Source of the DNA: an uncultured bacterium
Lineage (GTDB): Bacteria; Acidobacteriota; Thermoanaerobaculia; Multivoradales; JAHEKO01
Assembly (NCBI GenBank): GCA_905479655.1
Contig: CAJQNK010000123.1
Coordinates: 26,553-90,552 of the forward strand
Length of the DNA: 64,000 nt
Direction: 5' to 3'
Shown here: positions 16,942-57,793 of the stretch, in pieces
Layout of the letters: every line of letters begins with the position of its first letter
Position numbering within the stretch: the stretch's first letter is position 1
Translations under genes and position numbers: made by a program
The notes under the pieces: model-generated
What the model saw: only the letters and a program-made list of their open reading frames with translations
Told to the model about the DNA's origin: nothing
The model's database searches: none

Positions 16942-17806
16942 TTTCGCCGCCCTCCTCGCGCTCGCCCTGGCGCTGGTCCCGGCCGTGCCCCCCGTGGCCG
17001 CCCAGCAGCTGGCGCCCAACCGGATCTCGTCTACGGGCGACAGCATCACGGAGGCCATCGACGCGGAGCTGCCGCTAGCCAACCATTGGGCGAGCTGGGC
17101 CGGCGGCTACAGCAACTTCTGGACCCGGTTGTTCGGCCTGGCGGACGTCCGCAGCCACAACCAGCGGATCGACTTCTTCATCAACCCCGGAGGCCGGGCG
17201 AACTTCATCGAGGCCAAGAGCGGGGCCGACAGCTTCGACTTCCCGGGCCAGGCGCTCCAGGCGGTCGATCACGCGGCCGCCTACGTGACCGTCTTCATGG
17301 GCCACAACGACGTCTGCCAGAACGACTTCGCCGACATCCCGACGGACGCGGAGTTCGAGGCGAACATGCGCGCGGGCCTGGAGAGCCTGCGCACGGGTCT
17401 GCCCGTCGGCGCCACGGTCTACGTCGTGAGCATCGTCGACATCTACAAGCTCTGGGAGCTGGGCGACGAGCTGACCGCCCTGGGCCTCCTCGATTGCGAG
17501 CTCCTGTGGAGTCTCACCCTCCTCGAGCTCTTCCCCTGCGGGACCATGCTCAGCCCCCTCAACAGCGAGGAGGACCGACAGTTCACGAGGGGCCGCAACA
17601 TCGCGTTCAACGAGATCCTGTCGGCCCTGGTCGACGAGTACTCGCAGGCCGACCCGGAGCACTACTACTTCTACACGGGCTCGATCTTCGACACCGAATT
17701 CGTCGCCGACGACATCTCGTGGATCGACTGCTTCCACCCGAGCCCGCGGGGCCAGAAGAAGCTCTCCCACAAGACCTGGAATGTCGGCCCGTTCGCCGAT
17801 TTCTGA
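16922..17806 (+). CDS. Secreted SGNH/GDSL-family hydrolase
   Basis: GGGAGGAG then ATG at 16922; signal peptide MSPRYRSFAALLALALALVPA; GDSIT block I, GHNDV block III, DCFHPS block V. Confidence 0.75.
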   Translation: MSPRYRSFAALLALALALVPAVPPVAAQQLAPNRISSTGDSITEAIDAELPLANHWASWAGGYSNFWTRLFGLADVRSHNQRIDFFINPGGRANFIEAKSGADSFDFPGQALQAVDHAAAYVTVFMGHNDVCQNDFADIPTDAEFEANMRAGLESLRTGLPVGATVYVVSIVDIYKLWELGDELTALGLLDCELLWSLTLLELFPCGTMLSPLNSEEDRQFTRGRNIAFNEILSALVDEYSQADPEHYYFYTGSIFDTEFVADDISWIDCFHPSPRGQKKLSHKTWNVGPFADF

Positions 17807-17970
17807 GCGCGAGGGGCGACCGGGGTGTCGGGCCGGTCGCGGCCGGTCGACCCTCGCTGCTCCGCCGCCGGTTGTCTTGGTAGACTTCCCCGACGTCTGA
17901 CACTCTCCTGACGGGCGATGCCTACTTTCCCCCAGAGTGTCGGGCGCACGGTGCTCGGAGGAGTTGCGCG

Positions 17971-18651
17971 ATGAGAATCCTGGTGGTGGAGGACGAGGAG
18001 GTCCTGGCAGACGCGATCGTCGAGGCGCTCCAGGACGAGTGCTACGCCGTGGACCTGGCGGCTGATGGGGCGACTGCATCCGAGCTCATGCACGTGAACA
18101 GCTACGATCTCGTGATCCTCGACTGGACGATCCCGCCGCCGACGGGGATCCAGCTGCTGCGCCAGTGGCGGGACGGGGGCGACTCGACCCCGGTCCTGAT
18201 GCTGACGGGACGCTCGGAGGTCGAGCACCGTGTCGACGGGCTCGACACCGGGGCGGACGACTACCTCACGAAGCCGTTCTCCTTCGTGGAGTTCCTCGCC
18301 CGGGTGCGCTCCCTAATGCGCCGCCCGCAGCGGACGCTCGCCAACACCCTCGGCGCCGCGGACCTCGAGCTCGACCGGGCCTCCCGCCAGGTGACCCTCG
18401 CCAGCGAGCCGGTCGAGCTGTCGCCGAAGGAGTTCGGGGTGCTGGAGTACCTGCTCCGCCGCCAGGGCGAGGTGGTGACCCGGACCGAGCTCACCGAGCA
18501 CGTCTGGGACGAGACCTTCGACTCGGTCTCGAACGTCATCGACGTGACGGTCTACCGACTGCGCAAGAAGATCGACCGGGAGACGGCGGCGGGGAAGCTG
18601 ATCCACACCGTGAAGGGTGTGGGGTACATCCTGAAGAAAGAGAGGACGTGA
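17971..18651 (+). CDS. OmpR/PhoB-family response regulator (receiver plus winged helix)
   Basis: MRILVVEDEE..., DLVILD phospho-acceptor context, C-terminal ...VKGVGYIL wing. Confidence 0.9.
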   Translation: MRILVVEDEEVLADAIVEALQDECYAVDLAADGATASELMHVNSYDLVILDWTIPPPTGIQLLRQWRDGGDSTPVLMLTGRSEVEHRVDGLDTGADDYLTKPFSFVEFLARVRSLMRRPQRTLANTLGAADLELDRASRQVTLASEPVELSPKEFGVLEYLLRRQGEVVTRTELTEHVWDETFDSVSNVIDVTVYRLRKKIDRETAAGKLIHTVKGVGYILKKERT

Positions 18652-18703
18652 TGCTGCCGAACCGCAGCCTCGAGGCCTCGGGCCCCGTGACGGAGATCGC
18701 GCG

Positions 18704-20572
18704 ATGAATCAAGAGCACCCGGAAGGCGCCAGCGGACTGAAGCGCGTCTTCGACCAGTGGCACTGGATGCCCGCGGCCGTCCTGGCCATGGGGATCGCCT
18801 CGATCGGCCTGCTCATCGCCAGCGACCGGATCCACGAGGAGCTCGTGGCCCGGGATCTGGCGATGGTCTGCGCCGTGAGCGACCTGCAGACCCAGGCGGC
18901 GACGGCCCACCTGTGGATCAAGGAGTTCGTCTCGGGCGACGAGGCCAATCACGACCGGATCTGGGAGCGGCTCGACGGCGCCACGGCGGTGAGCGACGCC
19001 CTCCTGGGCGGCGGCACGGTGCACCAGGTGACGGTGCAGGCGATCACGGAGCCCGCCCTGCGCGCGCAGGCGGAGGAGATCCGGGCACAGATCGTCCGGC
19101 TCCGGGACATCACCGAAGAGCGCGAGGCGCTCTACCGGCAGGGCGAGAGCGTGGGTATCGGGTCGGACATGGACATGCTCCACGACGACCTCTACTTCGC
19201 CCTCACGGACATGAGCGAGGCTCTCGAGCGCCAGATCGTGATGCGGGTCATGGAGAACAAGAGCCAGGCCCAGCTCCTCTTCCGCACGATCCTCATCGCC
19301 TGGGTCCTGATCGTCGCGATGGCGGTGACCGGCCTGTGGAGCCGCGAGCATCGGCGTCGGCAGGCGGAGGCGGCCCTGCGCGAGAGCGAGTCGCAGCTCC
19401 TCCAGGCGCAGAAGATGGAGGCCGTCGGCCGGCTCGCGGGCGGCATCGCCCACGACATCAACAACTACCTGGCGGCGATCACGGCGCAGAGCGAGCTCGT
19501 GCGGATGAAGTCCGAGCCCGGCAGCCGGGTGGCCACCAAGATGGACTCGGTGATCGCCACCGCCCAGAAGGCGTCGACGCTGATCAAGCGCCTGCTGGCG
19601 TTCAGCCGCCGGCAGCCGGTGCAGCCGGAGGTCGTGAAGCTCAACCGCGTCGTCGAGGGTCTGGGCAAGATGATGACGCGGCTCATCGGCGAGGACGTCG
19701 AGCTGGAGACCGCCCTCGAGCGCAGCATCTGGAACGTGCGCATCGACCCCTCGCAGCTCGAGCAGGTGATCGTCAACCTCCTGGTGAACGCCCGGGAGGC
19801 GATGCCCACCGGCGGCCGCCTGATGCTCACGACCCGCAACTACCGCCTCGGCCAGGCCTGGGAGGAGGCGCCGGTGAACCTGCCGCCGGGCGAGTACGTG
19901 ATGCTCTCCATCGCCGACAGCGGCACCGGCATCCCGCCCGAGATCCGGGACAAGATCTTCGAGCCGTTCTTCACCACGAAGGAGGAGGCGGGCCGCTCGG
20001 GTCTCGGCCTGGCGACGGTCTACGGCATCGTGCGCCAGAACGGTGGCCACATCACCGTCCGCAGCCAGGTAGGTGAGGGCACGGAGTTCCGCATCTTGGT
20101 CCCCCGTTGCACCGAGCCCGAGACTCGCCCCGTGACCTCGGCCGTGCGGGCCGAGCCGCCCGCCCGGGGCCACCAGGAGCGCATCCTGCTCGTCGAGGAC
20201 AGCGACGACCTGCGGGACTCGACCCGCGGCCTGCTCGAGGAGATGGGCTACCGCGTCGACGTGGCGGCGAACGGCGAGGAGGCCCTGCGTCTCTACGACA
20301 CGCTGGGCGACTCGTTGGACCTCCTCATCACCGACGTCGTGATGCCGGGAATGAGCGGCCGCGAGGTGATGGACCACATCCGTCAGCGCAACCGCGAGCT
20401 CAACGTGCTCTTCATCTCGGGCTACACGGACAGCGTCGTGGTGCGCCACGGAGTGCGCGACGGCGAGTTCGAGTTCCTGCAGAAGCCCTTCTCGGCCGAG
20501 AGCCTGGCGCGCAAGGTCCGCGACGTGCTCGAGGATCGCCCGCCCAAGACGCCGAAGTCGGCCACGGGCTGA
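18704..20572 (+). CDS. Hybrid sensor histidine kinase (HisKA-HATPase_c plus C-terminal receiver)
   Basis: H-box [15 protein letters not shown] boxes ([25 protein letters not shown]), receiver [11 protein letters not shown]...[12 protein letters not shown]. Confidence 0.85.
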
Positions 20573-20606
20573 TGCGACCCGAAGCCGCGCGGAGGACGGG
20601 GGAGAG

Positions 20607-21167
20607 GTGATGGCCTGGATTCGCACGATCGAGCCGGGGGAGGCCACGGGCCTCCTGAAGCGCCTCTTCGACGCCGCCATCGAACGCGCCGGCAAAGTCT
20701 TCCACGTCATCCAGATCCAGGGCCTGCGCCCCCATACGCTGCGCGTCTCCACCCAGCTCTATACGGAGGTGATGCACTCGTCGCGCAGCGGCCTCACGAG
20801 GGCCCAGCGCGAGATGATCGCCACCGCCGTCTCCCGCGCCAACGGGTGCCACTACTGAACCCGCGCCCACGCAGAGGACCTCCGTGCCGAGGTCCCCGAC
20901 ACCCCCGAGGGGCGGGCGCTGGTGGAGGCCGTGGCCATGGACCACCGCGAGGGCGACCTCGATCCGGCGGACCGGGCCATGCTCGACTACGCCCTGAAGC
21001 TCACCCGCACGCCCCAGGCGATGCGCCGGCGCGACGTGGAGGAGCTGCGCCGCCACGGCTTCGACGACGGGGCGATCCACGACGTCGTCCAGGTGACCGG
21101 CCTCTTCGCCTACTACAACCGCATCGCGGACGGGCTGGGGATCGAGGGCGAGCCCGAGTGGGAGTGA
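20607..21167 (+). CDS. AhpD-like (carboxymuconolactone decarboxylase family) peroxidase-related protein with in-frame TGA at 20856-20858; probable selenoprotein (or a pseudogene if Sec machinery is absent)
   Basis: Listed ORFs 20607..20858 and 20922..21167 are in the same frame, and the intervening segment TRAHAEDLRAEVPDTPEGRALVEAV is also in frame; readthrough gives a ~186-aa protein of typical family length; the TGA replaces the second Cys of the AhpD catalytic motif C-x-x-C-x3-H (ANGCHY-U-TRAH). Confidence 0.6.
20876..20895 (+). promoter_or_regulatory. SECIS-like hairpin 17 nt downstream of the in-frame UGA: 7-bp stem GGACCUC/GAGGUCC, loop CGUGCC (contains GU)
   Basis: Read directly; position and apical GU are compatible with bacterial SECIS elements. 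Confidence 0.35.
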
Positions 21168-21198
21168 GCCCCCGGCCATGGTCCTCACCGGGAGGGGT

Positions 21199-22146
21199 TC
21201 AGGGGGCGCTCTCGTCCGCGGTCGGGGGCAGGGCCGGCGAAATGTACGGCACGAGGCCCGGGTCCGGGGGCCACGGTAGGAGGAGACCGCCGCCGATACC
21301 GCGGGCCACCTCGTTGCCGTAGAGGTGGGCGACGAGGTACATGGCGACGTCGAAGCTGCGCGCGCCCCCCTGGGAGGTGAGGGCGGGGCCGTCGTGGACG
21401 AAGCTGACGTTGACCTGGAGGTCGATCCCGGGGAAGCGCCGGGCGAACGACTCGTAGTCGGAGGGGAAGGTAGTGGCGGACCTCCCGTCCAGCAGATCCG
21501 CCTCGGCCAGGACGAAGGCGCCCCAACACAGGGAGACGACGAAACGCGCGTCGGAGCCGACCCGCCGTACCCACTCGACCAGCTCGCGGTTCTCGAGGTC
21601 GGTGCCCCGGCTGCCCTGGGCGCTCGGCACGACCAGGATGTCGAGGGCCGGGGCGTCGGCGAAGCCGAAGTCGGGCGTCAGCCGCAGGCCTTCCGCGGTG
21701 GTGACCGGCCGGCCGTCGGGAGAGATCGAGACGACGTCGATCCAGGGCTCGCCGCGAACGTGGTAGCGGGTGTGCTGGAGCACGTCCCACGGGGCGGTGA
21801 GCTCCGTGTTGTATACGCCGTCCACCAGCAGGAAGCCGGCCACCAGGGGCTTGGGGTCGGTGGGCTGGTCGGCGCTCCCGTCGCCGCCGGCCACGATGGC
21901 CGTCGGGAGCCCCAGGACGAGGAGCGTGGCGAGGGTCCATCTGGAGACGAGGGAGTGGAGCAGGGTATGGCGGAACGAGGCGTGGCGGAACAAGGCGAAG
22001 ACCCTCCGGTTGCGAGGCCGATGATACCGCACGGCCCCGGGGTCTCCGGGGCGGCCGAGATCCGCGGCTCGTCCCCGATCGGAACCTCCGTCGGGGTCCG
22101 GCTGGCATTCCATCGACTTTGGGGGATAATAGGGCGCTCGTTTCAC
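21199..22146 (-). CDS. DJ-1/PfpI (class I glutamine amidotransferase-like) family protein, probably exported; start codon uncertain
   Basis: Nucleophile-elbow VVSLCWGAFVLAEA; hydrophobic N-terminal segment TLATLLVLGLPTAIVAGG; several candidate starts. Confidence 0.6.
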   Translation of the reverse strand: MKRAPYYPPKSMECQPDPDGGSDRGRAADLGRPGDPGAVRYHRPRNRRVFALFRHASFRHTLLHSLVSRWTLATLLVLGLPTAIVAGGDGSADQPTDPKPLVAGFLLVDGVYNTELTAPWDVLQHTRYHVRGEPWIDVVSISPDGRPVTTAEGLRLTPDFGFADAPALDILVVPSAQGSRGTDLENRELVEWVRRVGSDARFVVSLCWGAFVLAEADLLDGRSATTFPSDYESFARRFPGIDLQVNVSFVHDGPALTSQGGARSFDVAMYLVAHLYGNEVARGIGGGLLLPWPPDPGLVPYISPALPPTADESAP

Positions 22147-22217
22147 CAGAACGTCGCGCGGCTCACGGCCGCGTTCGCCCCAAGCCGCTGCTCCGGGTGA
22201 GAAGGAGACCGACTCAA

Positions 22218-24299
22218 ATGCGACCCAAGAAGCTCGGGGAGAGCGTCCTCCTCTCCGTTCTGCTCTCCCTCCCCTTCGCCCTCTCGGCGACGGGCGGCAT
22301 CGCGGGCCCCGGCCTGCTGCCTCTGCCTACGACGGCGAACGACTTCCTCCAACCCGGAACGCAGCCCGAGACGCTGGACGAGGCGATCTTCGACTCCAAC
22401 GACTGCCGCGACTGCCACGGTGACTACGACCTCGAGGTCGAGCCGTACGGGCGCTGGAAGGGCAGCATGATGGCCCAGTCGTCCCGCGACCCGGTCTTCT
22501 GGGCCTGCCTCGCCATCGCCAACCAGGACGTGAACGGGGTCGGGGAGATCTGCCTACGCTGCCACACGCCCAGCGCGTGGTTGGGCGGGCGCAGCGACCC
22601 GCCGGACGGCTCGGCGCTGGACCCGGCGCAGGGCGACTTCGACGGCGTCACCTGCCACGTCTGCCACCGCCTGGTCGACCCGGTGTTCGATCCGGACGAG
22701 AACCCGCCGGTGGACGAGGAGGTGCTGGCGGCGCTGCCGCTGGTGCCCGGGGAGCCTCATACGGCCCAGTACATCATCGATCCCATCGACCGGCGCCGCG
22801 GGCCTTTCGTCCTGTTTCCCGGCTTCCCCTGGCACCGTTGGGCGCAGTCGCCCTTCCACCGCGAGGCGATGCTGTGCGCCAACTGCCACGACGTCTCGAA
22901 TCCGGCTCTCTCCCGGCAGGAGGACGGCACCTACAAGCTCAACGAGCTCGACACCCCGCACCCGACCCACGACAAGCAGGACGAGTTCCCGATCGAGCGC
23001 ACCTTCACCGAGTGGAAGCTCTCCTCGTTCGGGCAGGCCGAGATCGACGTCGACGGGCGCTTCGGGGGCAACAAGCCGGCGGTCTCGACCTGTCAGGACT
23101 GCCACCTCGAGGACCACACCGGGGAGGCGTGCAAGCCCGGGGTCGGCGGGACCCAGCGCGACGACATGCCCCTCCACAACTTCAACGGCGCCAACTCCTG
23201 GGTGATCGCGGCCGTCCGCACCCTGTACCCGGACGCGGAGACGGGACTCACGGACGAGATCGCCGACGCGGCCCTGGCGCGCAACGTCTCGATGCTGGAG
23301 CGGGCCGGCGATCTCGAGGTCTTCCTGCGCGACGGTCAGCTCGTGACCCGGGTGATCAATCGCACGGGGCACAAGCTGCCGACGGGTTACGGCGAGGGGC
23401 GCCGCATGTGGCTCCACGTCGAGTTCCTCGACGAGGTGGGCCAGCTCCTGGAGGACCGCGGCCACTACGACGCCGAGACGGCCACCCTGACGACGGACGA
23501 CACCCGGGTCTACGAGTCGCATCAGGGCCTGGACGACTACATGGCCGAACAGACGGGACTGCCGGCGGGGGAGAGCTTTCACTTCGTCCTCAACAACACC
23601 GTCTACAAGGATAACCGGGTTCCCCCCCGCGGCTTCGTGAACGCGGTGTACGACGAGCACCAGACCGGGGTCGTGGATCACGTCTACGCGGACGAGCAGT
23701 ACTGGGACGACGCCCTCTTCGATCTGCCCCAGGGCACCGCCAGCGTCCGCGTCACCCTCTACCACCAGACGACCTCGCGCGAGTACATCGAGTTCCTGCG
23801 CGACGAGAACCGCACCAACGACCGGGGCCAGATCGCCCACGACGTCTGGGTCGAGCAGGGACGGAGCGCTCCGGTCCCGATGTCGAGCGTCGAGGTGGAC
23901 GTCGCCGTGGGCGCCTGCCCCCAGCCGATCGTCTACGGCCTGGGCAACGTCGCCTCCAACGGCGATCGCGCGCGGCTCGGCTGGAGCGGCACGCCCAGCG
24001 TGGCGGCCGGGGACTTCGTCGTCGAGCTCTCCGGCGCGGTGCCGGGTCGCGCGACGCTGCTCGTCGGCGACGGCACGGCGAGCGAGCCGTTCGAGGCGGG
24101 CACGCGGCTGGTGGCGGCGCCGCGTCGGGTGGTGAGCTTCACCGTCGCCGCCGACGGCACCGCATCCGTCCCCGTGCCCCTCGCCGGACACCCCGGCCTG
24201 GCGGGTCGAGAGATCACCGTGCAGGTTCTCTTCGAGGACTCCGTCGGCGGCTCCCGGGCCAGCCTGAGCGACGCCCTTCACATCGACATCTGTCCCTAG
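22218..24299 (+). CDS. Secreted pentaheme c-type cytochrome
   Basis: AAGGAG then ATG at 22218; signal peptide; five CxxCH motifs (CRDCH, CLRCH, CHVCH, CANCH, CQDCH) plus a heme-free ~250-aa C-terminal domain. Confidence 0.8.
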   Translation: MRPKKLGESVLLSVLLSLPFALSATGGIAGPGLLPLPTTANDFLQPGTQPETLDEAIFDSNDCRDCHGDYDLEVEPYGRWKGSMMAQSSRDPVFWACLAIANQDVNGVGEICLRCHTPSAWLGGRSDPPDGSALDPAQGDFDGVTCHVCHRLVDPVFDPDENPPVDEEVLAALPLVPGEPHTAQYIIDPIDRRRGPFVLFPGFPWHRWAQSPFHREAMLCANCHDVSNPALSRQEDGTYKLNELDTPHPTHDKQDEFPIERTFTEWKLSSFGQAEIDVDGRFGGNKPAVSTCQDCHLEDHTGEACKPGVGGTQRDDMPLHNFNGANSWVIAAVRTLYPDAETGLTDEIADAALARNVSMLERAGDLEVFLRDGQLVTRVINRTGHKLPTGYGEGRRMWLHVEFLDEVGQLLEDRGHYDAETATLTTDDTRVYESHQGLDDYMAEQTGLPAGESFHFVLNNTVYKDNRVPPRGFVNAVYDEHQTGVVDHVYADEQYWDDALFDLPQGTASVRVTLYHQTTSREYIEFLRDENRTNDRGQIAHDVWVEQGRSAPVPMSSVEVDVAVGACPQPIVYGLGNVASNGDRARLGWSGTPSVAAGDFVVELSGAVPGRATLLVGDGTASEPFEAGTRLVAAPRRVVSFTVAADGTASVPVPLAGHPGLAGREITVQVLFEDSVGGSRASLSDALHIDICP

Positions 24300-24366: not shown

Positions 24367-26301
24367 ATGCCTTCGACCTTCCGTACCTTCTCCCGTCACG
24401 GCGCGGTCGCCGTGGCGCTTTTGACCCTCCTCGTCGCCTCGGCGGCCGGGGCGGTCACCCTCGACGTCCTGGAGCCGCAGCAGCAGGCGGTCTACTCCAT
24501 GCTCACGCTGCGCGGGACCGATTTCGGCACCTACAGCCCAGGCATCAGCAAGATCGTCTTCACCAGCGGTGACGGCTCGATCGTCATCGACGACGCCCGG
24601 CCCTACGTCTGGCGGAACGACTTCATCCAGGTGCGGGTCCCGGTCGGCGGACCCGCCGGCAAGATCCCGCTGGACGACATCGACGTGACGGTCGAGGCCG
24701 TCGGCGGCACCTCCAACGCGTTGCCGTTCCAGGTCCTCGCCCGGCCCTCGGCGGACACGCTGAACTTCGTCCAGCGGACCCAGATCGTCGCCAACGAGGA
24801 GGTCTCGGGTTTCCTCGGCTCCGTCGACGACAACAAGGCCCGCACCAAGGACGCCCACTTCGGTGACGTCAACGGCGACGGCTATCCGGACCTGATCGAC
24901 AACAACTCGAACAACAGCAACAACGGCACCCACTCCGTCCTGCGGCTGAACGACGGCGGCACCGGCTTCTCCGACGCGCGCTGGGAGCCGCTGGACTCGA
25001 ACGACTCGGGCACCTTCGTGGTGACGATCCTGCCCGGCGGCCTCTACCCCGGCAACGTCGTGGTGTACGACGCGGACCTCATCGACCTGAACAACGACGA
25101 GCTGCCCGACTGGGTGACCGGCGACGCCGGTTCGGCGCTGCGCGTCCGCGTCGACATGAACGACTACCAGGGCGTTCCCGGCCGGTTCGTCGAGGACACG
25201 GCGACCTGGCTGCCCAGCCAGTCCGCGCCGGGCTCCCCGGACGACGTCTGCTCGACCGACGTCAACTTCGACGGCTTCGTGGACATCGCGGTCTCCTACC
25301 GCTTCAGCAAGAACGTGGACGTCTTCTACAACGACAACGGCCAGACCTTCGGCGTGTCCCGCCGTCTGTCCGGTGTCGGTACGGCCTCCTTCCACGACGT
25401 GTTCTTCATCGACGCCAACGACGACGGCTTCGCGGACGTGATCGCCGTCAACGAGAGCGCCGGCTCGCAGCTCTTCCTGAGTGACGGCAACCTGCCGACC
25501 CCCAACTTCACCCATGACCAGACGTTCGCGGACGACGGCCACTCCGGCGTCGCCGCCGACCTCAACGGCGACGGTCTCGAGGACTTCGTGCTCTCGGAGT
25601 TCAACAAGGCGGTGGCCTACATCAACAACCCCCTGAGCCCCGGGAGCTTCCAGACCGTCGCCCTGCCCAATCCGAAGGACTTCACCTACGATCTCGAGGC
25701 CGGCGACGTCGACCTCGACGGCGACATCGACATCATCGGTGCCGTGGTGACCCTGACGGACATCGGCGACAACGCCTCCAGGGTGTGGATCAACGGCGGC
25801 AACGGCCAGAACTGGACCACCTGGACCCAGGCCAGCGACATCCTGCCGGGCATCGGCGACTACGAGCGCCTGTCGGCCGACCTGTTCGACTTCGACCTGG
25901 ACGGCGACCTGGACCTCTACCTGACGGGTTCGGACGGCTCGGGACCCTGGGGCTTCGGCGCGTCCCCGAATCAGTTCTGGGAGAATCGGCAGATCGGCCA
26001 TCGGCTGAGCGTGACCGGCAGCTGCCCGGGCCCGGGCTCGGTCGACGTGAGCGTCGCGACGCCGAACGCCTCGCTGGCGATCCTGGGCTCAGCGACGCCG
26101 GGCAGCGTCACGGTGCCGGCCGGACCCTGCCCCGGAATCACGATCGATCTGGCCAGCCCGTCGATCCTCGCGACGGTCAGCGCCGACGCCAACGGCAACT
26201 TCAGCCTGGCGCCGACCTTCCCGTCCAACGCCTGCGGCTTCTATCTGCAGGTGATCGACCTCGACGACTGTTCGGTGAGCAACCGCGTCGCCGTCCCCTG
26301 A
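24367..26301 (+). CDS. Secreted IPT/TIG-domain plus FG-GAP/VCBS-repeat (integrin-alpha-like beta-propeller) protein
   Basis: AAGGAG then ATG; signal peptide; repeated FG-GAP-like D-x-N/D-G-D-G motifs (DVNGDGYPDL, DANDDGFADV, DLNGDGLEDF, DVDLDGDIDI, DFDLDGDLDL). Confidence 0.75.
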   Translation: MPSTFRTFSRHGAVAVALLTLLVASAAGAVTLDVLEPQQQAVYSMLTLRGTDFGTYSPGISKIVFTSGDGSIVIDDARPYVWRNDFIQVRVPVGGPAGKIPLDDIDVTVEAVGGTSNALPFQVLARPSADTLNFVQRTQIVANEEVSGFLGSVDDNKARTKDAHFGDVNGDGYPDLIDNNSNNSNNGTHSVLRLNDGGTGFSDARWEPLDSNDSGTFVVTILPGGLYPGNVVVYDADLIDLNNDELPDWVTGDAGSALRVRVDMNDYQGVPGRFVEDTATWLPSQSAPGSPDDVCSTDVNFDGFVDIAVSYRFSKNVDVFYNDNGQTFGVSRRLSGVGTASFHDVFFIDANDDGFADVIAVNESAGSQLFLSDGNLPTPNFTHDQTFADDGHSGVAADLNGDGLEDFVLSEFNKAVAYINNPLSPGSFQTVALPNPKDFTYDLEAGDVDLDGDIDIIGAVVTLTDIGDNASRVWINGGNGQNWTTWTQASDILPGIGDYERLSADLFDFDLDGDLDLYLTGSDGSGPWGFGASPNQFWENRQIGHRLSVTGSCPGPGSVDVSVATPNASLAILGSATPGSVTVPAGPCPGITIDLASPSILATVSADANGNFSLAPTFPSNACGFYLQVIDLDDCSVSNRVAVP

Positions 26302-27646: not shown

Positions 27647-27708
27647 TCGGTCTCTCCGCGTTGTTCCGCGGGAGCCCCAACCCGAACCCGACTTCCCAGG
27701 AGGCCCCC

Positions 27709-29340
27709 ATGGCCAATGGTTTCTTCCGCGTCCCAGCACCGGTGAACGAACCGGTCCGCGCCTACGCGCCCGGCTCACCGGAGAAGGCCTCGCTCAAGCG
27801 GCGGCTCGACTCCATGCTCAACGAGACTGTCGAGATCCCGGTCGTCGTCGGCGGCCGCAGGATCCACACCGGCGCCACCCACGACGCCGTCTGCCCCCAC
27901 GACCACCGCCACGTGCTGGCGAAGGTCCACCAGGCCGGCGCCGCCGAGGTGGAGCAGGCGATCGCGGCGGCCCGGGTGGCGTGGCAGGGGTGGTCGGAGC
28001 TGCCCTGGGAGGCGCGGGCGGCCGTGTTCCTCAAGGCCGCCGAGCTGCTGGCCGGCCCCTGGCGCGACACGGTGAACGCCGCGACCATGCTGAACCAGTC
28101 GAAGTCGGTCTACCAGGCGGAGATCGACTCGGCCGCCGAACTGGTCGACTTCTGGCGCTTCAACCCGCACTACATGAGCAAGGTCTACGAGGACCAGCCG
28201 GGCTCGGCCCGGGGCATCTGGGACCGTGTGGAGTACCGGGCGCTGGAGGGCTTCGTCTTCGCGGTGACGCCCTTCAACTTCACGTCCATCGCCGGCAACC
28301 TCCCCACCGCCCCCGCGCTCATGGGCAACGTCGTGCTGTGGAAGCCGGCCTCGTCGGCCTGCCTGGCGGCCTGGTACATCTTCTGTCTGCTGGAGGAGGC
28401 CGGGTTGCCTCCGGGGGTCATCAACTTCGTCCCCGGGCGGGGCAGCCAGGTCGGCGACCCGGTCGTGGCCAGTCCCGACCTGGCGGGCATCCACTTCACG
28501 GGCTCCACGGGGACCTTCCAGCGGATGTGGAAGACGATCGGCGGCAACATCGAGCGCTACCGGTCCTACCCGCGGATCGTCGGGGAGACGGGGGGCAAGG
28601 ACTTCGTCTTCGCGCACCCGAGCGCCGACGTCCCGTCGTTGGTGACCGCGCTCGTCCGCGGGGCCTTCGAGTACCAGGGGCAGAAGTGCTCGGCCGCGTC
28701 CCGCGCCTACATCCCCCGCTCGTTGTGGGAGGCGGTGAGAGGGCCGCTCGTCGAGACGGTGGAGTCGTTGCCCCAGGGCCCGCCGACGGACTTCCGCAAC
28801 TTCCTCTGCGCGGTGATCGACGAGGGGGCGTTCGACGACATCATGGGCTTCATCGAGCACGCCAAGGGCAACCATGGCTTCGAGATCCTGACCGGCGGCG
28901 AGGGCGACAAGTCCGAGGGGTACTTCATCCAGCCCACGGTGGTCGTCTCGGCCGAGCCGCGCTCCAAGCTCATGCGCGAGGAGATCTTCGGTCCCGTGCT
29001 GACGATCTACGTCTACGAGGACGACGACCTGGACGCCACTCTCGAACTGGTGGACACGACCTCGCCGTACGCGCTCACCGGCGCGATCTTCGGCCGCGAC
29101 CGCAGGGACATCGAGGCGATGACCCGGCGCCTGCGTCACTCGGCCGGCAACTTCTATGTCAACGACAAGCCCACGGGCGCCGTGGTCGGTCAGCAGCCGT
29201 TCGGCGGCGGCCGGGCCTCGGGCACCAACGACAAGGCGGGCTCGGCGGTCAACCTCCTGCGCTGGGTCTCCCAGCGGGCGATCAAGGAGAGCTTCGTGCC
29301 GCCGACCGGCGTCCGCTACCCGCACCAGGACGAGGCGTGA
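27709..29340 (+). CDS. pruA: L-glutamate gamma-semialdehyde (1-pyrroline-5-carboxylate) dehydrogenase
   Basis: AGGAGG 6 nt before ATG 27709; ALDH catalytic Cys in [13 protein letters not shown], ...VGETGGKDF..., P5CDH-specific N-terminus. Confidence 0.85.
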
Positions 29341-36430: not shown

Positions 36431-38683
36431 CTAGTCCACGTACCCTAGCGCCCGCAGGCTGTCGAGCGTCTCGTCGTCCAGATCGGAGAGCGGAGCCCCG
36501 GTCTCGAGCTGGAGGCCGATCTCGACCCAGGCCGACAGCAGGCCCCGGAGCCAGTGGGCCTCGGGGATGTCGTCGCCCGCCAGGTTCACCTGCTCGCCCG
36601 GGTCCGCCCGGAGGTCGAAGAGGTACTCGACGTCCCGGCTGCGGCCCAGACCCTGCCCCATACCCCAGGTGGTACCGGCGCGCGGGGCGTGGATCAGCTT
36701 GTAGTGCTCCGTTCGGGCCGTGAACTCGCCGCCCTCGACGCTCGACGCGGCCGCGAACTGCACGGGGCGCTCCGGGGCGGTTCCGCCGGCGAGGAGCGGC
36801 CACAGGGATCGTCCGGCCGCGGGCTCCGCCGCGTCGCCGGCCGCGGCGTCGGCCAGGGCGGCCAGCGTCGCGTGCAGGTCGACGTTGTCGGTGTTGGCCG
36901 TGACCACGCCGGGTTCGACGTGCCCGGGCCAGTGGAAGACGAGCGGGATCCGGAGTTGCTCGTCGTAGAGCGTCCAGCCGTGCAGCACGCCACCGTGCTC
37001 GAAGAGCTCCTCGCCGTGGTCGGAGGTGATGATCAGGAGGACCTCCTCCGGGGGCACGCGGCGGTGAAGCTCGGCCAGGAAGCGCTCGAGCTCCCGGTCG
37101 TTGTAGGCGAGGCCGCCCGCGTAGAGGCCCCGCAGGCGTCTCCGGTCGGCCTCCGAGGTCTGCCGGCGCTGGTACTGCACGTCCCGTAGGGTCTTCGTGG
37201 AGCCGTCGATCGTCGAGCCGGCGCCGTCGGCGAGAGCGGAGAGGAACGGCTCGGGCGGATCGTACGGGTTGTGCGGGTGGATCGTCTGGATGTGCAGGAA
37301 GGCCGGCTGCCCCTCGGGCAGGCCGTCGAGCCACTCGAGAGTCGCGTGGTGGACCCGCTCCGCGTTGTCGTTGAACGCCGGGTTCTCGTTCTGGTACGAG
37401 CCGAATAGGATGCTGCGTGGTGCGGTGTCGAAGCCGCGGGTGAGACCCTGGGCGGAGGTGATGTTGCCGTTGCCCGTGAACAGGCCGGTGGCACGGCCGG
37501 CCCGGCGGAAGCGCTCGGCGATCGTCACCGGGCCGTCGTCCGGCAGCTGCCAGCCGCCGCGGGTCAGGAAGACCATGCCGGTGAACAGCGACTTGGTGGA
37601 CGGCAGCGTGTTGGGCGCGACCGAGAAGTGGTGCGTGAAGGTCGTACCCTCGGCCGCGAGGCGGTCGATGATGGGGGTCGCCTCGGCGGGACTACCGAGG
37701 TGGCCCACGAAATCGGTGCGCAGGGCGTCGAGGACGTAGACGACGACCAGACGCGGAAGCTCCGGCGTCGCGCCCGAGGAAGGAGTGGCGCTCTCGTCGT
37801 CGCCGCCGGGCTCGGCCGGGCCCTCTCCGCCGACGTGCCGCAGCGCGAGGCCGGTCCAGCGGGCCGGAGGCCCCTCGCCGCGTGCCTCCAGGCGCACGCG
37901 GACGAACTCCGTTCCGTCCGGGATCGGCGCCTCGAAGGTCGGATCTCCGCCGAACCAGCCCGTGCCGGGCCAGGTGAAGACCTCCTCGTCGTCTCCCAGG
38001 TCGGCTCGCAGACGCACCGCGAACGACTGGTCGGCGTCGCCGTCGGCGGGGGGCTCCAGGCGGCCCACCAGGGCCTGGGCACCGTGGGCCGGGACGGTGA
38101 GCTCCACCGTCGACCAGCCGGACTGCACGAGATCGGAGCCGTCGACCGACGCCCCGCCGGCGGGCAGCGCGGGCACGATCCCGACGTTGGCGAGCGAGAC
38201 GAGGGTCTCGCCCGTGACGACGTCGATCGGCAGGCGACCGGTGGGGAGATCGGCCGGCAGGGGCACCTCGACCCGGCCGGCGAGAGGGTACCTGCCGAGA
38301 CTCCGGCCCGCGATCGCGATCTGCATCGTTCCGTCCGCCGGACCTTCCCGCACCTCGGAGTCGAGCACGAGGGTGCGGGGCCGCGCCTCGAGAACGACGA
38401 CCTCGAGGCGTGCCCCGGCCCTCTGCGGCGTGAGCGCGAGCGCCCCGGGGTTCTTGTGGGGCCACCAACCGACGAGATACCGGTTGCCGCCCGTCGCAGC
38501 GGGGGGCAGCTCGAGGCGGCGGGTCTCGAAGAGCACCTCGGGGGCCACCAGGCCGTCCAGGATGGCTGCGTCGCCGGGCTCGCGGATGCGGGTTCCGCCG
38601 CAGCCGGCGGCGAGCAGGGCGAAGAGCGCGAGGGCACCGCGCGCGGCGAGCGAGCGGGTCACGGGGATTCCTGGATCGTGCAT
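36431..38683 (-). CDS. Sulfatase-fold (alkaline phosphatase superfamily) lipoprotein with Thr in place of the formylglycine Cys
   Basis: Lipobox LLAAGCGG; sulfatase-domain blocks VVYVLDALRTDFVG and APNTLPSTKSLFTG (T-L-P-S-T instead of C-x-P-x-R); N-terminal ~300-aa beta-rich domain. Confidence 0.75.
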   Translation of the reverse strand: MHDPGIPVTRSLAARGALALFALLAAGCGGTRIREPGDAAILDGLVAPEVLFETRRLELPPAATGGNRYLVGWWPHKNPGALALTPQRAGARLEVVVLEARPRTLVLDSEVREGPADGTMQIAIAGRSLGRYPLAGRVEVPLPADLPTGRLPIDVVTGETLVSLANVGIVPALPAGGASVDGSDLVQSGWSTVELTVPAHGAQALVGRLEPPADGDADQSFAVRLRADLGDDEEVFTWPGTGWFGGDPTFEAPIPDGTEFVRVRLEARGEGPPARWTGLALRHVGGEGPAEPGGDDESATPSSGATPELPRLVVVYVLDALRTDFVGHLGSPAEATPIIDRLAAEGTTFTHHFSVAPNTLPSTKSLFTGMVFLTRGGWQLPDDGPVTIAERFRRAGRATGLFTGNGNITSAQGLTRGFDTAPRSILFGSYQNENPAFNDNAERVHHATLEWLDGLPEGQPAFLHIQTIHPHNPYDPPEPFLSALADGAGSTIDGSTKTLRDVQYQRRQTSEADRRRLRGLYAGGLAYNDRELERFLAELHRRVPPEEVLLIITSDHGEELFEHGGVLHGWTLYDEQLRIPLVFHWPGHVEPGVVTANTDNVDLHATLAALADAAAGDAAEPAAGRSLWPLLAGGTAPERPVQFAAASSVEGGEFTARTEHYKLIHAPRAGTTWGMGQGLGRSRDVEYLFDLRADPGEQVNLAGDDIPEAHWLRGLLSAWVEIGLQLETGAPLSDLDDETLDSLRALGYVD

Positions 38684-45204: not shown

Positions 45205-46635
45205 TCACTCCTCCCCCAACACCGCCTTCGCTCCCTCCTGGCCCCAGTGGAACGCCTCCTCGTTGAGGGGCAGGAGCGCGCAGTGGTTCTTGAGCGCCTG
45301 GGCCATGGCCTGGTGGAAGGTCGCCACCGGGAACAGGCCCGTCGCCGCCTGGAGCGCCCCCAGGGCGACGACGTTCTTCACCATCGCCTTCCCGAGGTCC
45401 AGGGCGATCTGGGTGCACGGCACGCCGACCATTCGGATCGACGGGTCGACCTCGGGGACCTTCTCGATCACCGAGGAGTCGTAGATCACCGTGCCGCCGT
45501 GCCTCACGTGGGGCGCGAACTTGTCCATGCTCGGAGCGTTGAACGCGACCAGCACGTGGGGCTCGGGAGAAGCGGGAGACAGGACCTCCTCCTCGGCCAC
45601 GTGGACGTCGGCGTACGAGGTGCCGCCACGAGACTCCGGGCCGTAGGAGGGGATGTAGGTCGAGTCGTAGCCCTCGTTGATCCCGGCCCGGGCGGTGAGC
45701 GCCGCCACGGTCTGGGCCCCGTCGCCGCCGGCGCCGGCGAACTTGATCGCCACGTCGTGGGCGTCGAGGTGGCTCGGGAACGCCTCGGCGAAGCGCTCGG
45801 GGGAGTCGGAGGTGGCGCCGATGGCCGCCGCCATGGCGTCGGGCTCGAAGTTCGGCGTGCCCAGGTCGAACCACGGCTCGACCTCGATGTCCTTCTTGAC
45901 CCCCAGCGGGAAGACGGCGGTCATCGCCTTCTCGACCCACTTCTCGGCCTCGACGGGCGTCATCTTGAGGTGGGTCGGGCACTCGGCCAGGACCTCGACG
46001 AAGGCCAGGCCTCGGTTCTCGGCCTGCAGGCGGAACGCCTTGGTGATGGCCTTCTTCGCGCGGTTGCGCTGCTTGCTGTCGTAGAGAGCGACGCGCTCGA
46101 CGTACATCGGGCCATCGAGCTGCGCGATGGTCTCGGCCACCTTCAGGGGCTCGCCCGTCAGCCGTGTGCGACCGGTGGGTGTCGTGGTCGTGCGCATGTC
46201 CATCAGCGTGGTGGGCGCCATCTGGCCGCCCGTCATGCCGTAGACCGCGTTGTTGATGAAGATGAAGGTCATGGGCAGCCCGAGCTGGGCCGCCTGCATC
46301 ACCTCGGCGAGGCCGATCGAGGCCAGGTCTCCGTCCCCCTGGTAGGAGAGGACGATGGAGTCGGGGTTGGCCATCTTGTGGCCCAGCGCCACGGCGGGCG
46401 CGCGGCCATGGGCGGCCTGGGTGTTGCCCACGTCCAGGTAGTAGTAGAGGAAGACGGAGCAGCCGACGGGCGAGACGGCGATGGTGCGGTCCTGGATCCC
46501 CAGCTCGTCGATGGCCTCGGCCATGAACTTGTGGACCAGGCCGTGCCCGCAACCCGGGCAGTAGTGGGTGCTGTGGCCCTTCAGGCCTTCGCCGTGGGCG
46601 TGACGCTCGAAGCGGTTGTAGAAGGCGCCTTCCAT
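45205..46635 (-). CDS. 2-oxoacid:ferredoxin oxidoreductase beta subunit (TPP-binding) fused to gamma subunit
   Basis: ATG 46635; HYCPGCGHG, GDGD...N TPP site (SYQGDGDLASIG), C-terminal gamma-like domain (FAGAGGDGAQTVA...). Confidence 0.8.
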   Translation of the reverse strand: MEGAFYNRFERHAHGEGLKGHSTHYCPGCGHGLVHKFMAEAIDELGIQDRTIAVSPVGCSVFLYYYLDVGNTQAAHGRAPAVALGHKMANPDSIVLSYQGDGDLASIGLAEVMQAAQLGLPMTFIFINNAVYGMTGGQMAPTTLMDMRTTTTPTGRTRLTGEPLKVAETIAQLDGPMYVERVALYDSKQRNRAKKAITKAFRLQAENRGLAFVEVLAECPTHLKMTPVEAEKWVEKAMTAVFPLGVKKDIEVEPWFDLGTPNFEPDAMAAAIGATSDSPERFAEAFPSHLDAHDVAIKFAGAGGDGAQTVAALTARAGINEGYDSTYIPSYGPESRGGTSYADVHVAEEEVLSPASPEPHVLVAFNAPSMDKFAPHVRHGGTVIYDSSVIEKVPEVDPSIRMVGVPCTQIALDLGKAMVKNVVALGALQAATGLFPVATFHQAMAQALKNHCALLPLNEEAFHWGQEGAKAVLGEE

Positions 46636-46636
46636 G

Positions 46637-48046
46637 TCAACGGCCCTCCAGGCCGACGATCTTCTCGACGATCTCGCCCTGCTGGGGGAGCACGCCGCCG
46701 AAGTGCCGGACATTCTCGATTCGGTGGAAGGGTTGCTGGGCGTGGGAGAGGGCGAGTCGCAGCTCGTCCTCGAGCTGACCGGAGCCGGCCTCGACCATCA
46801 CCAGGCCCCGGATGCGTCCCAGGAGAGGCTCCAGATCGTCGATGGGGAAGGGCCAGAGGGAGATCGGTCGGAACAGGCCGGCCTTGATCCCCCGTTCCCG
46901 CAGCGTCCGCACGGCGCCCTTCGCCATGCGAGCCGGGGTGTTGCAGGCCACGATCACCCAGTCGGCGTCCTCGCACTGGTAGAGGTCGGCCCGCTGCTCG
47001 TTGGCGCGCATCGTCGCGTACTTCTCGTTGAGGCGCAGGTTGTGCTGCTCCAGATCGGTCTCGGAGAGGAAGATGGAGCACAGGAGGTTGCGACGGTGGT
47101 CGCGGTCGCCCCAGACCGCCCACTCGGGGAGGCCGGGGCGGATCATGGTGTCGGGCAGCTGCACCCGGCCCGTCATCTGGCCCAGGTAGCCGTCCGCCAC
47201 CAGGACCACCGGGTTGCGGTACCGGAACGCGAGGTCGAACGCCTCCAGGGTGAGGTCCAGCATCTCCTGGGGGGTCGAGGGCGCCAGCACCAGGGCGTGG
47301 GTGTTGCCGTGGCCCAGGCCGCGGCACACGAGCTTGATGTCGCTCTGCTCCGGCGCGATATTGCCCAGGCCGGGGCCGCCCCGCATGACGTTGATGAAGA
47401 CCCCGGGGATCTGGGAGCCGATCATGTAGGAGATCCCCTCCAGCATGAGGCTGAAGCCCGGCGACGAGGTGAAGGTCATGGAGCGCAGGCCCGCGCCGCC
47501 ACAGCCGTACATCATGTTGACGGCCGCGACCTCGCTCACCGCCTGGAGGAAGACGCCGTCGAGCTCGGGCAGGAGCTTGGCCATGAGCTCGGCTCCCTCC
47601 GTCGACGGGGTGATCGGATAGCCGAAGAAGTGTCGGCAGCCGGCCAGGAGCGCGCCCACGGCGGCGGCGTGATTGCCCTTGAGCACCATCGTCTCTAGGC
47701 GGGGCAGCTCGACCGTCGTGTTCGGGATATCCCGGGGCTCGGGCGCCTCGGTGAGACGTGGGCCGAACAGCGCCTCGGGATCGAGCAGCTCGAAGTCGAC
47801 CTCCTCGGTGGGCTCGGGCATCAGGCCGAACGGCTCGGGGCACGCGGTGATGCACAGACCGCAGGTGTTGCACTCGTCCAGGTTCACGACCACGGGCGTG
47901 AAGCCGGTGGCGGGGTCGATCTCCGTACCGAGCTCGATGCAGTGCTTCGGGCAGGCCTCGATACAGCGACCGCAGGCCTTGCAGAATTCCGGGAAGAGGA
48001 ACGGCTTGGGCCGAACCTTCTTGGGGGTCTTGGCCGTCTTCGTCAT
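46637..48046 (-). CDS. 2-oxoacid:ferredoxin oxidoreductase alpha subunit with N-terminal 2x[4Fe-4S] ferredoxin (delta-like) domain
   Basis: ATG 48046 after AGGAAAG; CKACGRCIEACP and CNTCGLCITACP clusters followed by the alpha-subunit core (GYPITPSTE). Confidence 0.8.
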   Translation of the reverse strand: MTKTAKTPKKVRPKPFLFPEFCKACGRCIEACPKHCIELGTEIDPATGFTPVVVNLDECNTCGLCITACPEPFGLMPEPTEEVDFELLDPEALFGPRLTEAPEPRDIPNTTVELPRLETMVLKGNHAAAVGALLAGCRHFFGYPITPSTEGAELMAKLLPELDGVFLQAVSEVAAVNMMYGCGGAGLRSMTFTSSPGFSLMLEGISYMIGSQIPGVFINVMRGGPGLGNIAPEQSDIKLVCRGLGHGNTHALVLAPSTPQEMLDLTLEAFDLAFRYRNPVVLVADGYLGQMTGRVQLPDTMIRPGLPEWAVWGDRDHRRNLLCSIFLSETDLEQHNLRLNEKYATMRANEQRADLYQCEDADWVIVACNTPARMAKGAVRTLRERGIKAGLFRPISLWPFPIDDLEPLLGRIRGLVMVEAGSGQLEDELRLALSHAQQPFHRIENVRHFGGVLPQQGEIVEKIVGLEGR

Positions 48047-48266
48047 CGTCTTTCCTGATCTGATTGGCGGGTCGTCGCCGGACCGGCCCCGGCCCTCGAG
48101 TACGGCGGGAGAGGGCGACCGCACGGCGCGGTGGGGTCGGATCGACGGCTCCTTCTCAATGCTAGAGACGAGGCCGGCGAAAGTGACCACCCGACAGGGC
48201 GGTTGGGGCGACGCGGACGGATGGGGCCGCCGCTGGCCCCGGCGACCGTCCGCGCCGGGGCTGGGG

Positions 48267-57500: not shown

Positions 57501-57793
57501 CGTCGGGCGGTCGCGCCTACAACGCGAGTGGCGCCAACGGCACCTGCGGCACGGACGGTCAGGGGGGTTGGGCCGGCACGATGGACAGCTGGTCTCCCAG
57601 CGCCTGGACGTCGACGGCGCTGAAGTCGGCCGAGTTCTCCGGCAAGCGCATCCAGCTCGATGTTCGTTACGGCACCGATCCTCTGGAGCACGGCTTCGGC
57701 TTCCGCTTCGACGAGGTCACGCTGACGGACCTGGCGCTCGTGGTGCCCGACACTCAGAAGAACTCGTCGACGCTGGGGGTCTGCGTCCCCTAG
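54518..57793 (+). CDS. Large secreted Cys-rich zinc-metalloprotease-like protein (HExxH) with Fn3-like and beta-sandwich domains, 1091 aa
   Basis: Signal peptide; VFDHEWGHGMDDND zinc-binding motif; multiple Cys pairs (CGGYGDPCIAC, NCGGGPAPCGG); Fn3-like SWDPVADATEYQVFR; the antisense 1161-aa ORF is rejected. Confidence 0.75.
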   Translation: MRASRRGSAWSVCLLVAVVFSAVPAPAAIQPERSPEIAALELYSSELNVRNVYQEVGQLPGSLASAAQGDLLALGLTPERARIDRRTGRWGTLLLSRPLIPGSGVGNDLRWDEAPRNDAALQARVWTAFAAFLDAHRGELRVDRSEMPNPGRVTVHEDGNVIQIYAPRVIDGIPVRDSYINAVVNHGNLVLVGVNNWGDVRSSVQPSVSPEAARRVVDEHVGDVRVRGLWRGTSLIILPLARGADSARVEPGRGLDHRLAWVVRPLLAGDQGRWEALVDAETGRLLAFQDTQHYASARLVQGGAYPVSNDGAPPDGVEVLGTPMPFDSVVTEVGTLVTDSGGNLPLAVDGNITSSLDGQYVRMADVCGAISLTSGGDLDFGGSGGDDCTTPGFGGAGNTHSSRSGFYELNRIKEQARGWLPANGWLMGTLTANMNINSSCNAFWSGSTVNFYRSGGGCGNTGELAGVFDHEWGHGMDDNDAVPSISNPGEGIADVYAGLRLDTSCIGRGFFSSNCGGYGDPCIACTGIRDIDWAKRVSGVPHDIAWIDANCGGGPAPCGGIVHCEGAVYSEAVWDTYTRTLPNQSGLDPNTALEATTRLTFLGAGGVGSWYQCSAPFGGCNGSGGYLNYLAADDDDGDLNNGTPHMTALFNAFDLHDIACNTPVVQDSGCVGTPTSAPIVTSSPADKSVALSWDPVADATEYQVFRGEGVFQCDFGKVKIGETTGTSFMDTGLQNGREYSYVVIPMGSADTCWGPASSCTVETPVSGPNLSVDPGSLVLTFNTGDGDDFIDNCESATGTFTVTNTGLGGLTNVNLESMVSTSHPLVSIDAVGMITPDILAEGESATGTFDFTAKGLAHLDTLFFEATVTATEIAGDRTGSVSTGSAESDAEFVAAITYDFEADTNGWEVISGTFDRTDASGGGANGTAFYEQSSSFLEDQCDHIRSPVVSLSPTSTLSLSTRFDIEAEFTPGVWYDRANVGLYDLGTGSRTLVTPSGGRAYNASGANGTCGTDGQGGWAGTMDSWSPSAWTSTALKSAEFSGKRIQLDVRYGTDPLEHGFGFRFDEVTLTDLALVVPDTQKNSSTLGVCVP

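Follow-up and report, generated by a model that had tools for sequence, protein, structure and literature searches.

A probable selenocysteine-encoding gene of the AhpD-like family, with a conserved and covarying candidate SECIS hairpin, in an uncultured bacterium of the Thermoanaerobaculia

The AhpD-like protein (COG2128), which carries selenocysteine (Sec, U) in a CxxU motif, was reported in 2005 as a new selenoprotein family, with 27 sequences from the Sargasso Sea (PMC1088965). The family "AhpD-like 1" was represented by 299 sequences in the Global Ocean Sampling (GOS) data, where it ranked as the fourth most abundant selenoprotein family in ocean metagenomes (PMC2398784). The "AhpD-like protein, COG2128/TIGR01926, CxxU" is listed in reviews from 2022 and 2026, with PMC13188914 cited here for the described family, and the family has its own page in BSepDB; the reviews examined do not mention Acidobacteriota, Myxococcota or Planctomycetota in connection with it. 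Here, we describe a gene of this kind in 64,000 nt of DNA from an uncultured bacterium of the Thermoanaerobaculia (Acidobacteriota; contig CAJQNK010000123.1), referred to below as the window. An initial annotation of the window had proposed that an in-frame TGA encodes Sec in an AhpD-like protein, and had called such selenoproteins described but rare; they are indeed described (PMC1088965, PMC2398784, PMC13188914), but given their rank in the GOS data they are not rare in metagenomes. The kind of selenoprotein is already known, its family, CxxU motif and Sec insertion sequence (SECIS) having been catalogued since 2005. From comparisons at the sequence level, we put the probability that positions 20610-21167 form one functional Sec-encoding AhpD-like gene at roughly 0.93.

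One known relative of the product is AhpD from Mycobacterium tuberculosis (TIGR00777; PDB 1KNC/1GU9 class), in which Glu118, Cys130, Cys133 and His137 make up a proton relay (PMC3141380). Residues 111-142 of this protein align without gaps in BLASTP to residues 61-92 of the window protein, such that, numbered from the ATG, Glu68, Cys80, Sec83 and His87 correspond to the four relay residues; the residue numbering of the M. tuberculosis query matches PMC3141380. The two proteins share the two-helix motif E-x11-C-x-x-C-x3-H with conserved relay residues. In contrast to M. tuberculosis AhpD, however, the window protein has its catalytic helices in the middle of the chain rather than at the C terminus, only the core of ~32 residues aligns, Tyr takes the third motif position (as in Pseudomonas aeruginosa PA0269) instead of His, and Sec stands in place of Cys133. 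Membership in the canonical AhpD family was considered and rejected, as the TIGR00777 model scored 21.5 bits against a cut-off of 191.95 and matched only residues 59-96.

Full-length similarity is found elsewhere. Among solved structures, the closest are four "uncharacterized peroxidase-related proteins" of the AhpD-like type (2pfx, 3c1l, 2prr and 2oyo), together with Deinococcus radiodurans DR1765 (6k40), with E-values from 3e-20 to 2.5e-24. These are homologues of similar size along their full length, but they are Cys proteins and their identity to the window protein is modest; in the three best matches, those for which alignments were shown (2pfx, 3c1l and 2prr), CxYC aligns with CHY[U]. 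Loss of DR1765 renders cells sensitive to H2O2, and its CxxC motif is required for full complementation (PMC8945050). Another CxxU group, the NF041238 "AhpD_rel_CFYUT alkylhydroperoxidase-related (seleno)protein" (Sargasso Sea hypothetical protein 1), has C-F-Y-U-T where the window protein has C-H-Y-U-T. Membership in NF041238 was also rejected, since the score of 68.2 bits compares with a cut-off of 175 and only positions 151-337 of the 357-residue model are covered.

The closest described system is the AhpD-like selenoprotein family itself (COG2128 YciW-like, TIGR01926), with which the window gene shares the same hidden Markov model (HMM), a CxxU motif with Sec in second position, widespread Cys homologues, and a SECIS hairpin straight after the UGA with a G in a small apical loop. 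HMM and Pfam searches were run on the read-through product with Cys in place of the stop. The TIGR01926 model ("peroxidase-related enzyme") matched at 147.7 bits (cut-off 81.8), with residues 4-183 aligned to positions 2-177 of 178, and the Pfam CMD domain PF02627 (carboxymuconolactone decarboxylase superfamily) matched at 49.9 bits (gathering score 23). These scores bear out the earlier assignment to the AhpD/CMD-fold family. Moreover, because the TIGR01926 model is covered continuously across both open reading frames (ORFs) flanking the TGA, the two ORFs are halves of one domain. By every feature on which membership was tested, the gene is a member of the AhpD-like selenoprotein family (TIGR01926/COG2128, CxxU). 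The habitat is what sets it apart from the marine-plankton members, in that the window copy and its 80 closest orthologues come from soil, sediment and wastewater-type metagenome-assembled genomes (MAGs) of Acidobacteriota (Thermoanaerobaculia), Myxococcota and Planctomycetota; nothing essential differs.

At the level of the DNA, positions 20607/20610 to 21167 of the forward strand are one continuous frame in sequence and translation, interrupted by a single internal stop, the TGA at 20856-20858 (context ...SRANGCHY-TGA-TRAHAEDLRAEV...), and closed by a TGA stop at 21165-21167. Both ORFs described in the initial annotation, 20607..20858 and 20922..21167, are present in the mechanical ORF list, and they and the 63 nt between them share one open frame in the translation, as had been claimed. 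A fused product of ~186 aa had also been proposed; the single gene and its full-length TIGR01926 match stand, but orthologues begin MAWI.., which suggests that translation probably starts at ATG 20610 rather than GTG 20607, giving 185 aa. GC content is 71.4% across the window, and third-position GC (GC3) after the internal TGA reaches 0.96. When all in-frame TGAs in the six frames of the window were screened for flanks that both have high GC at third codon positions, the TGA at 20856-20858 was the sole one to pass.

Evidence for Sec comes from orthologues. The 80 best of 149 relatives, from a scan of one genome per species, were taken as the ortholog set, giving 81 sequences with the window copy. 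All 80 are full-length tblastn matches with 54-68% identity to the window protein. According to record titles, 63 are from Acidobacteriota, mostly Thermoanaerobaculia and including Ca. Multivoradales; nine are Myxococcota-type, among them the cultured Enhygromyxa salina SWB007; three are Planctomycetota; one is from Oligoflexia; and four are unclassified. The TGA is present at the Sec column in 80/80 loci, with no other internal stop and with the frame open throughout. In the more distant homologues L082-L084, this column is Cys (TGT/TGC), and in a protein search aligned to the query and sorted by residue at the Sec column, 20 of the 120 nearest clusters also have Cys, at 35-50% identity. The proposal that the TGA replaces the second Cys of a C-x-x-C-x3-H active site, with Sec and Cys orthologs meeting at one column, is thus upheld by both the orthologues and the ungapped M. 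tuberculosis AhpD alignment. Median identity to the orthologues is 65.9% for the N-terminal half and 61.4% for the C-terminal half; since the two are about equally similar, the sequence beyond the TGA is constrained at the protein level in the same way as the sequence before it.

Additional evidence came from the hairpin GGACCUC-CGUGCC-GAGGUCC, which lies inside the coding sequence. It starts 17 nt past the TGA and is part of the minimum-free-energy (MFE) fold. Published criteria for bacterial SECIS elements (bSECIS; PMC13188914) specify a stem of 4-16 bp, a loop of 3-9 nt, a G in loop positions 1-2, a distance of 16-37 nt from UGA to loop, and an MFE of −7.5 kcal/mol or lower. The window hairpin lies within all of these limits, with an upper stem of 7 bp, an apical loop of 6 nt, a G as the second loop base and a U as the next (G in most orthologues), a distance of 24 nt, and an energy of −11.4 kcal/mol for the hairpin alone. 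The hairpin-only energy is −7.5 kcal/mol or lower in 77/81 sequences.

To assess conservation of the hairpin, the 45 nt from the TGA onwards were aligned without gaps, columns 21-27 pairing with columns 34-40. Across the 81 sequences, 98.7% of cells in this helix are paired, a level that none of 500 shuffles attained and that compares with 24-49% for slid controls. Every one of the 81 sequences forms the six inner pairs, 74/81 (91%) also form the closing pair, and RNAalifold recovers the same helix unaided. Two pairs covary. Over 79 distinct rows, pair 24/37 takes the forms C-G (62), U-A (13) and U-G (4), with no case of C-A; a silent change in an Asp codon (GAC/GAU) is thereby tied to a Val/Ile exchange at a distance of six codons. 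In the window and all 80 loci, every change from Val to Ile is accompanied by a synonymous GAC to GAU change in the paired Asp codon, indicating that RNA structure constrains both codon choice and amino-acid replacement. The closing pair is C-G in 40 and G-C in 32 of the same rows. It links the wobble base of a Glu/Asp codon with the initial base of whichever codon follows Val; in the window, these are the Glu codon just before the stem codons and the Pro codon just after them. Leu in the stem is encoded by CTC in all 81 sequences, whereas CTC accounts for 42% of the Leu codons in the rest of these genes. The hairpin that had been put forward as a SECIS candidate, with its 7-bp stem and GU-containing loop, is accordingly conserved and covarying.

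Stem and loop (20877-20894) encode D-L-R-A-E-V in the window. D-L-R-A-E-[VI], mostly preceded by Glu or Asp, is the most conserved peptide in the C-terminal half and doubles as SECIS stem and loop. In three Cys homologues, in-register pairing falls to 5/7, 4/7 and 0/7. One of these, L083, keeps the peptide KDLRVEI with only 4/7 pairs; because the peptide is kept without the hairpin, the helix is not a by-product of the peptide.

Given this pattern, UGA 20856 is most likely decoded as Sec during translation. The hairpin, whose apical loop lies at a distance of 24 nt from the UGA, would serve as a bacterial SECIS that recruits SelB-GTP-Sec-tRNA(Sec) to the ribosome, leading to insertion of Sec instead of termination by release factor 2; the SelB step in this proposal is drawn from the established bacterial Sec pathway. 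The product would be a thiol/selenol oxidoreductase whose C-H-Y-U redox centre opens a helix, and the Glu 12 residues before the Cys and the His 4 residues after the Sec would complete a proton relay of the AhpD type. Koshkin et al. reportedly identified Cys133 as the attacking nucleophile in M. tuberculosis AhpD. A cycle between selenol/thiol and selenenylsulfide may reduce a peroxiredoxin-type partner, or peroxides directly, and so contribute to antioxidant defence. PA0269 shows weak reduction of H2O2 (PMC3141380).

Several observations weigh against a functional Sec-encoding gene, or against this view of its product. The biochemical role is extrapolated from Cys relatives, mainly M. tuberculosis AhpD, PA0269 and DR1765. 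In contrast to the AhpC-coupled AhpD of the M. tuberculosis type, there is no ahpC (AhpC/TSA) gene among the ~30 window ORFs scanned, and no peroxiredoxin partner is linked. Folding of single sequences is not significant (z = −1.2 for a 60-nt fold and z = −0.6 in a second calculation), and is therefore not used as evidence. By chance, 11% of TGA trinucleotides in the window precede a SECIS-compatible hairpin of at least 7 bp; a hairpin by itself is thus weak in DNA of 71% GC, and the case rests on comparison with the 80 orthologous loci. In that comparison, covariation was counted per sequence, not as independent events, and the shuffle control ignores relatedness. Rfam returned only chance-level matches and no SECIS family, for the whole window at the gathering score and for the surroundings of the site at E ≤ 10, a result that is uninformative since threshold was not attained by any SECIS model at any position of the window. 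Finally, ARAGORN found no tRNA gene, and hence no tRNA-Sec, in the 64-kb window, and no tRNA-Sec in 1.3 Mb of related loci; tblastn with an E. coli SelD query gave no match in the window or the related loci; and Pfam identified no SelA, SelB or SelD domains among the ~30 window ORFs. An intact gene, membership in the family, a Sec/Cys pair and a conserved, covarying hairpin are what the sequences show. Since neither the window nor the flanks of the 80 loci contain Sec machinery, decoding of Sec by the source genome is an inference, as are actual insertion of Sec, the presence of selA, selB, selC and selD elsewhere in the genome, and the physiological substrate and reductant of the product. Indirect support comes from a 2006 survey in which Acidobacteria and Anaeromyxobacter (deltaproteobacteria of Myxococcota type) were listed as Sec users (PMC1794560), and from a second candidate selenoprotein in a related locus, described below.

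The lack of Sec machinery in the window would also fit a gene that is of the Sec type by descent in a lineage that has lost Sec decoding, such that the window copy is a recent relic or is read through inefficiently with Cys or Trp. According to a 2006 survey, bacterial selenoproteomes are shaped by a balance in which selenoprotein loss is one of the sides (PMC1794560), and this counts for such a scenario. However, the window copy retains all seven hairpin pairs, the conserved loop G, an intact frame and a GC3 of 0.96 past the TGA. No decay is visible, and the two halves of the protein are similarly conserved. Loss of decoding is therefore very unlikely, although it fares better than the other alternatives.

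A fresh nonsense mutation or a base-call error would leave just such a lone stop inside a family member that is intact elsewhere, in which case the gene is a pseudogene or the codon is really TGC or TGT. This explanation is effectively refuted by the recurrence of the same TGA in all 80 loci, which are independent assemblies of different species, and in a further locus, L081. It would also leave unexplained why conservation is equal on the two sides of the TGA, and why a covarying hairpin is found at a fixed distance. Its probability is accordingly slighter still.

Public gene callers annotate the TGA as a true terminator separating two small genes, one encoding an N-terminal protein of 83 aa and the other a C-terminal protein of ~100 aa. 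The protein search reflects this: ~90 of the 120 clusters are C-terminal fragments that begin at the codon after the Sec column or just beyond (45-68% identity), and two are N-terminal fragments that stop at ...CHY. Moreover, a GTG at 20922 opens the second listed ORF. Nonetheless, the two fragments are halves of a single TIGR01926 domain, with model positions 2-177 covered continuously, and a break at the TGA would split the CxxCx3H active site and its helix. In the window, the two ORFs are joined in frame by 63 nt that code for the conserved segment AHAEDLRAEV, and the codon after the TGA is ACC, ACG or ATC in most loci, none of which is a start codon. Two separate genes can hardly be entertained as an explanation.

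Equally improbable is a sense reading of TGA as Trp or Gly (codes 4 or 25), with a residue other than Sec. Five of the 120 clusters are "full-length" database homologues with Trp at the Sec column, but these calls derive from TGA on short contigs and fail to translate with code 11 (for P0001, L081:440-1015, the DNA has TGA at the column and the gene call is untranslatable), the column is the catalytic Cys in homologues, no other in-frame TGA in the window has coding signal on both sides, and codes 4 and 25 are known from low-GC lineages, unlike this genome of 71% GC. TGA is also the terminator of the window gene itself and of 39/81 genes overall, and is therefore a normal stop in these organisms. 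Together, the equal conservation of the two halves and the use of TGA as a terminator exclude a pseudogene, two genes and a reassigned code.

A second candidate selenoprotein was observed in one of the related loci. L027, a locus from an Acidobacteria MAG with a 66%-identical orthologue, contains an AhpC/TSA ORF (L027:100-780, forward strand; PF00578, 107.9 bits) with an in-frame TGA at L027:424-426 in the motif FFRGSW-U-PFC (UxxC), 9.8 kb upstream of the AhpD-like gene. A 7-bp hairpin, GCAGCUC-GGC-GAGCUGC (loop GGC), begins 14 nt after its UGA. This ORF looks like the known "Prx-like" selenoprotein family, and such a second candidate indicates that the L027 genome decodes Sec.

The Sec clade, which spans Acidobacteriota, Myxococcota, Planctomycetota and Oligoflexia, contains no reversion to Cys among the 80 best orthologues. 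One tentative and rather doubtful proposal is that the near-invariant SECIS and the peptide D-L-R-A-E-[VI] co-evolved as a unit, possibly with horizontal transfer, the peptide being dictated by recognition by SelB and not by enzyme function, and that in this genome only, the gene was perhaps captured into a two-component operon. Neither such co-evolution of SECIS and peptide nor capture into a two-component operon was found described for the family in the literature examined.

In practical terms, the gene matters chiefly for annotation, since most family members are split or mistranslated in public gene calls. Standard gene callers would split or truncate this gene, and ~100 of the 120 nearest public protein clusters are systematically wrong calls, being either fragments or proteins with a false Trp at the Sec position. 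Beyond annotation, the gene marks its source organism as a likely Sec user, and the alignment of the SECIS across 81 sequences, in which two pairs are compensatory and the spacing is constant at 24 nt, is a clean training example for models of bacterial SECIS elements in high-GC genomes.

Table 1. Positions in the window of the AhpD-like gene, its elements and its immediate neighbours
Feature	Position	Strand	Remarks
OmpR-type response regulator	17971-18651	+	Pfam Response_reg + Trans_reg_C
Hybrid histidine kinase	18704-20572	+	Pfam HisKA + HATPase_c + Response_reg
Shine-Dalgarno-like purine-rich stretch (GGAGGA...GGGGGAGAGG) before the start codon	20591..20607	+	Candidate ribosome-binding site, predicted from sequence only
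Alternative start GTG	20607	+	Product 186 aa, Sec84
Probable selenoprotein gene, AhpD-like "peroxidase-related enzyme"	20610..21167	+	185 aa including Sec83; complete; ~20 kDa
Active-site segment E-x11-C-H-Y-U-T-R-A-H	20811..20870	+	Read from sequence
Active-site codons	Glu 20811-20813; Cys 20847-20849; Tyr 20853-20855; Sec 20856-20858; His 20868-20870	+	
In-frame UGA, predicted Sec	20856..20858	+	Second position of the C-H-Y-U redox motif; aligned to M. tuberculosis AhpD Cys133
Candidate bacterial SECIS hairpin, inside the coding sequence	20876..20895	+	5' arm 20876-20882; loop CGUGCC 20883-20888; 3' arm 20889-20895
DJ-1/PfpI family gene	21199..22146	-	Convergent, 31 nt downstream; Pfam PF01965, 69.3 bits

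The initial annotation had placed the gene directly downstream of a response regulator and hybrid histidine kinase pair, and had taken this to suggest redox-regulated expression. The pair is present on the same strand, with 37 nt separating the end of the kinase gene from the ATG, a distance at which co-transcription with the kinase is plausible in this genome. Scans of 17700-21500 for sigma-70 promoters and intrinsic terminators yielded no sites. However, such a pair is adjacent to the orthologue in 0/80 loci, with a few matches lying thousands of bases away and several of these on the opposite strand. Given that the pair is not conserved beside orthologues, redox-regulated expression is at most specific to this lineage, and is conjecture.

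Among the largest clusters of ORFs within 6 kb of the gene in the 81 loci, no conserved partner was found apart from the two halves of the gene itself; inspection covered the single largest cluster, which was rejected because it corresponds to antisense shadow ORFs of high-GC DNA. A DJ-1/PfpI gene is downstream of the orthologue in 7/80 loci, all of them Acidobacteriota/Thermoanaerobaculia, and an aldehyde dehydrogenase (27661-29340 in the window) recurs in six loci, five of which also belong to the DJ-1/PfpI set; these recurrences point to an origin of the window in the Thermoanaerobaculia. The Cys form in L084 (L084:1827-5074; P0009, a Planctomycetota MAG) is found between genes for a TrxB-like pyridine-nucleotide disulfide oxidoreductase, a PF11823 "Se/S carrier" and a class-V aminotransferase of the cysteine desulfurase / selenocysteine lyase type, a context that may tie the family functionally to the trafficking of sulfur/selenium.

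Further from the gene, the forward-strand ORF at 22119-24299 encodes 726 aa with several CxxCH haem-binding motifs and a weak, sub-threshold match to MtrC/MtrF outer-membrane cytochrome domains; it is followed on the same strand by a 644-aa FG-GAP repeat protein (24367-26301), and the pair could be an extracellular multihaem cytochrome module. A 1091-aa ORF at 54518-57793 (forward strand) has a strong coding signal (GC3 0.91), a signal-peptide-like N-terminus and no Pfam match at E ≤ 0.001. Large secreted proteins of the sulfatase family are confirmed by Pfam at 36431-38683 and 50120-52006 (both reverse strand), and, by eye only, the products of 52085-54217 (reverse) and 57928-60063 (forward) have a sulfatase-like N-terminal and a TPR-like C-terminal part. 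Two adjacent 2-oxoacid:ferredoxin oxidoreductase genes (POR_N, PFOR_II and 4Fe-4S domains; POR gamma and TPP_enzyme_C domains) at 45205-48190 on the reverse strand are consistent with an anaerobic or microaerophilic source organism.

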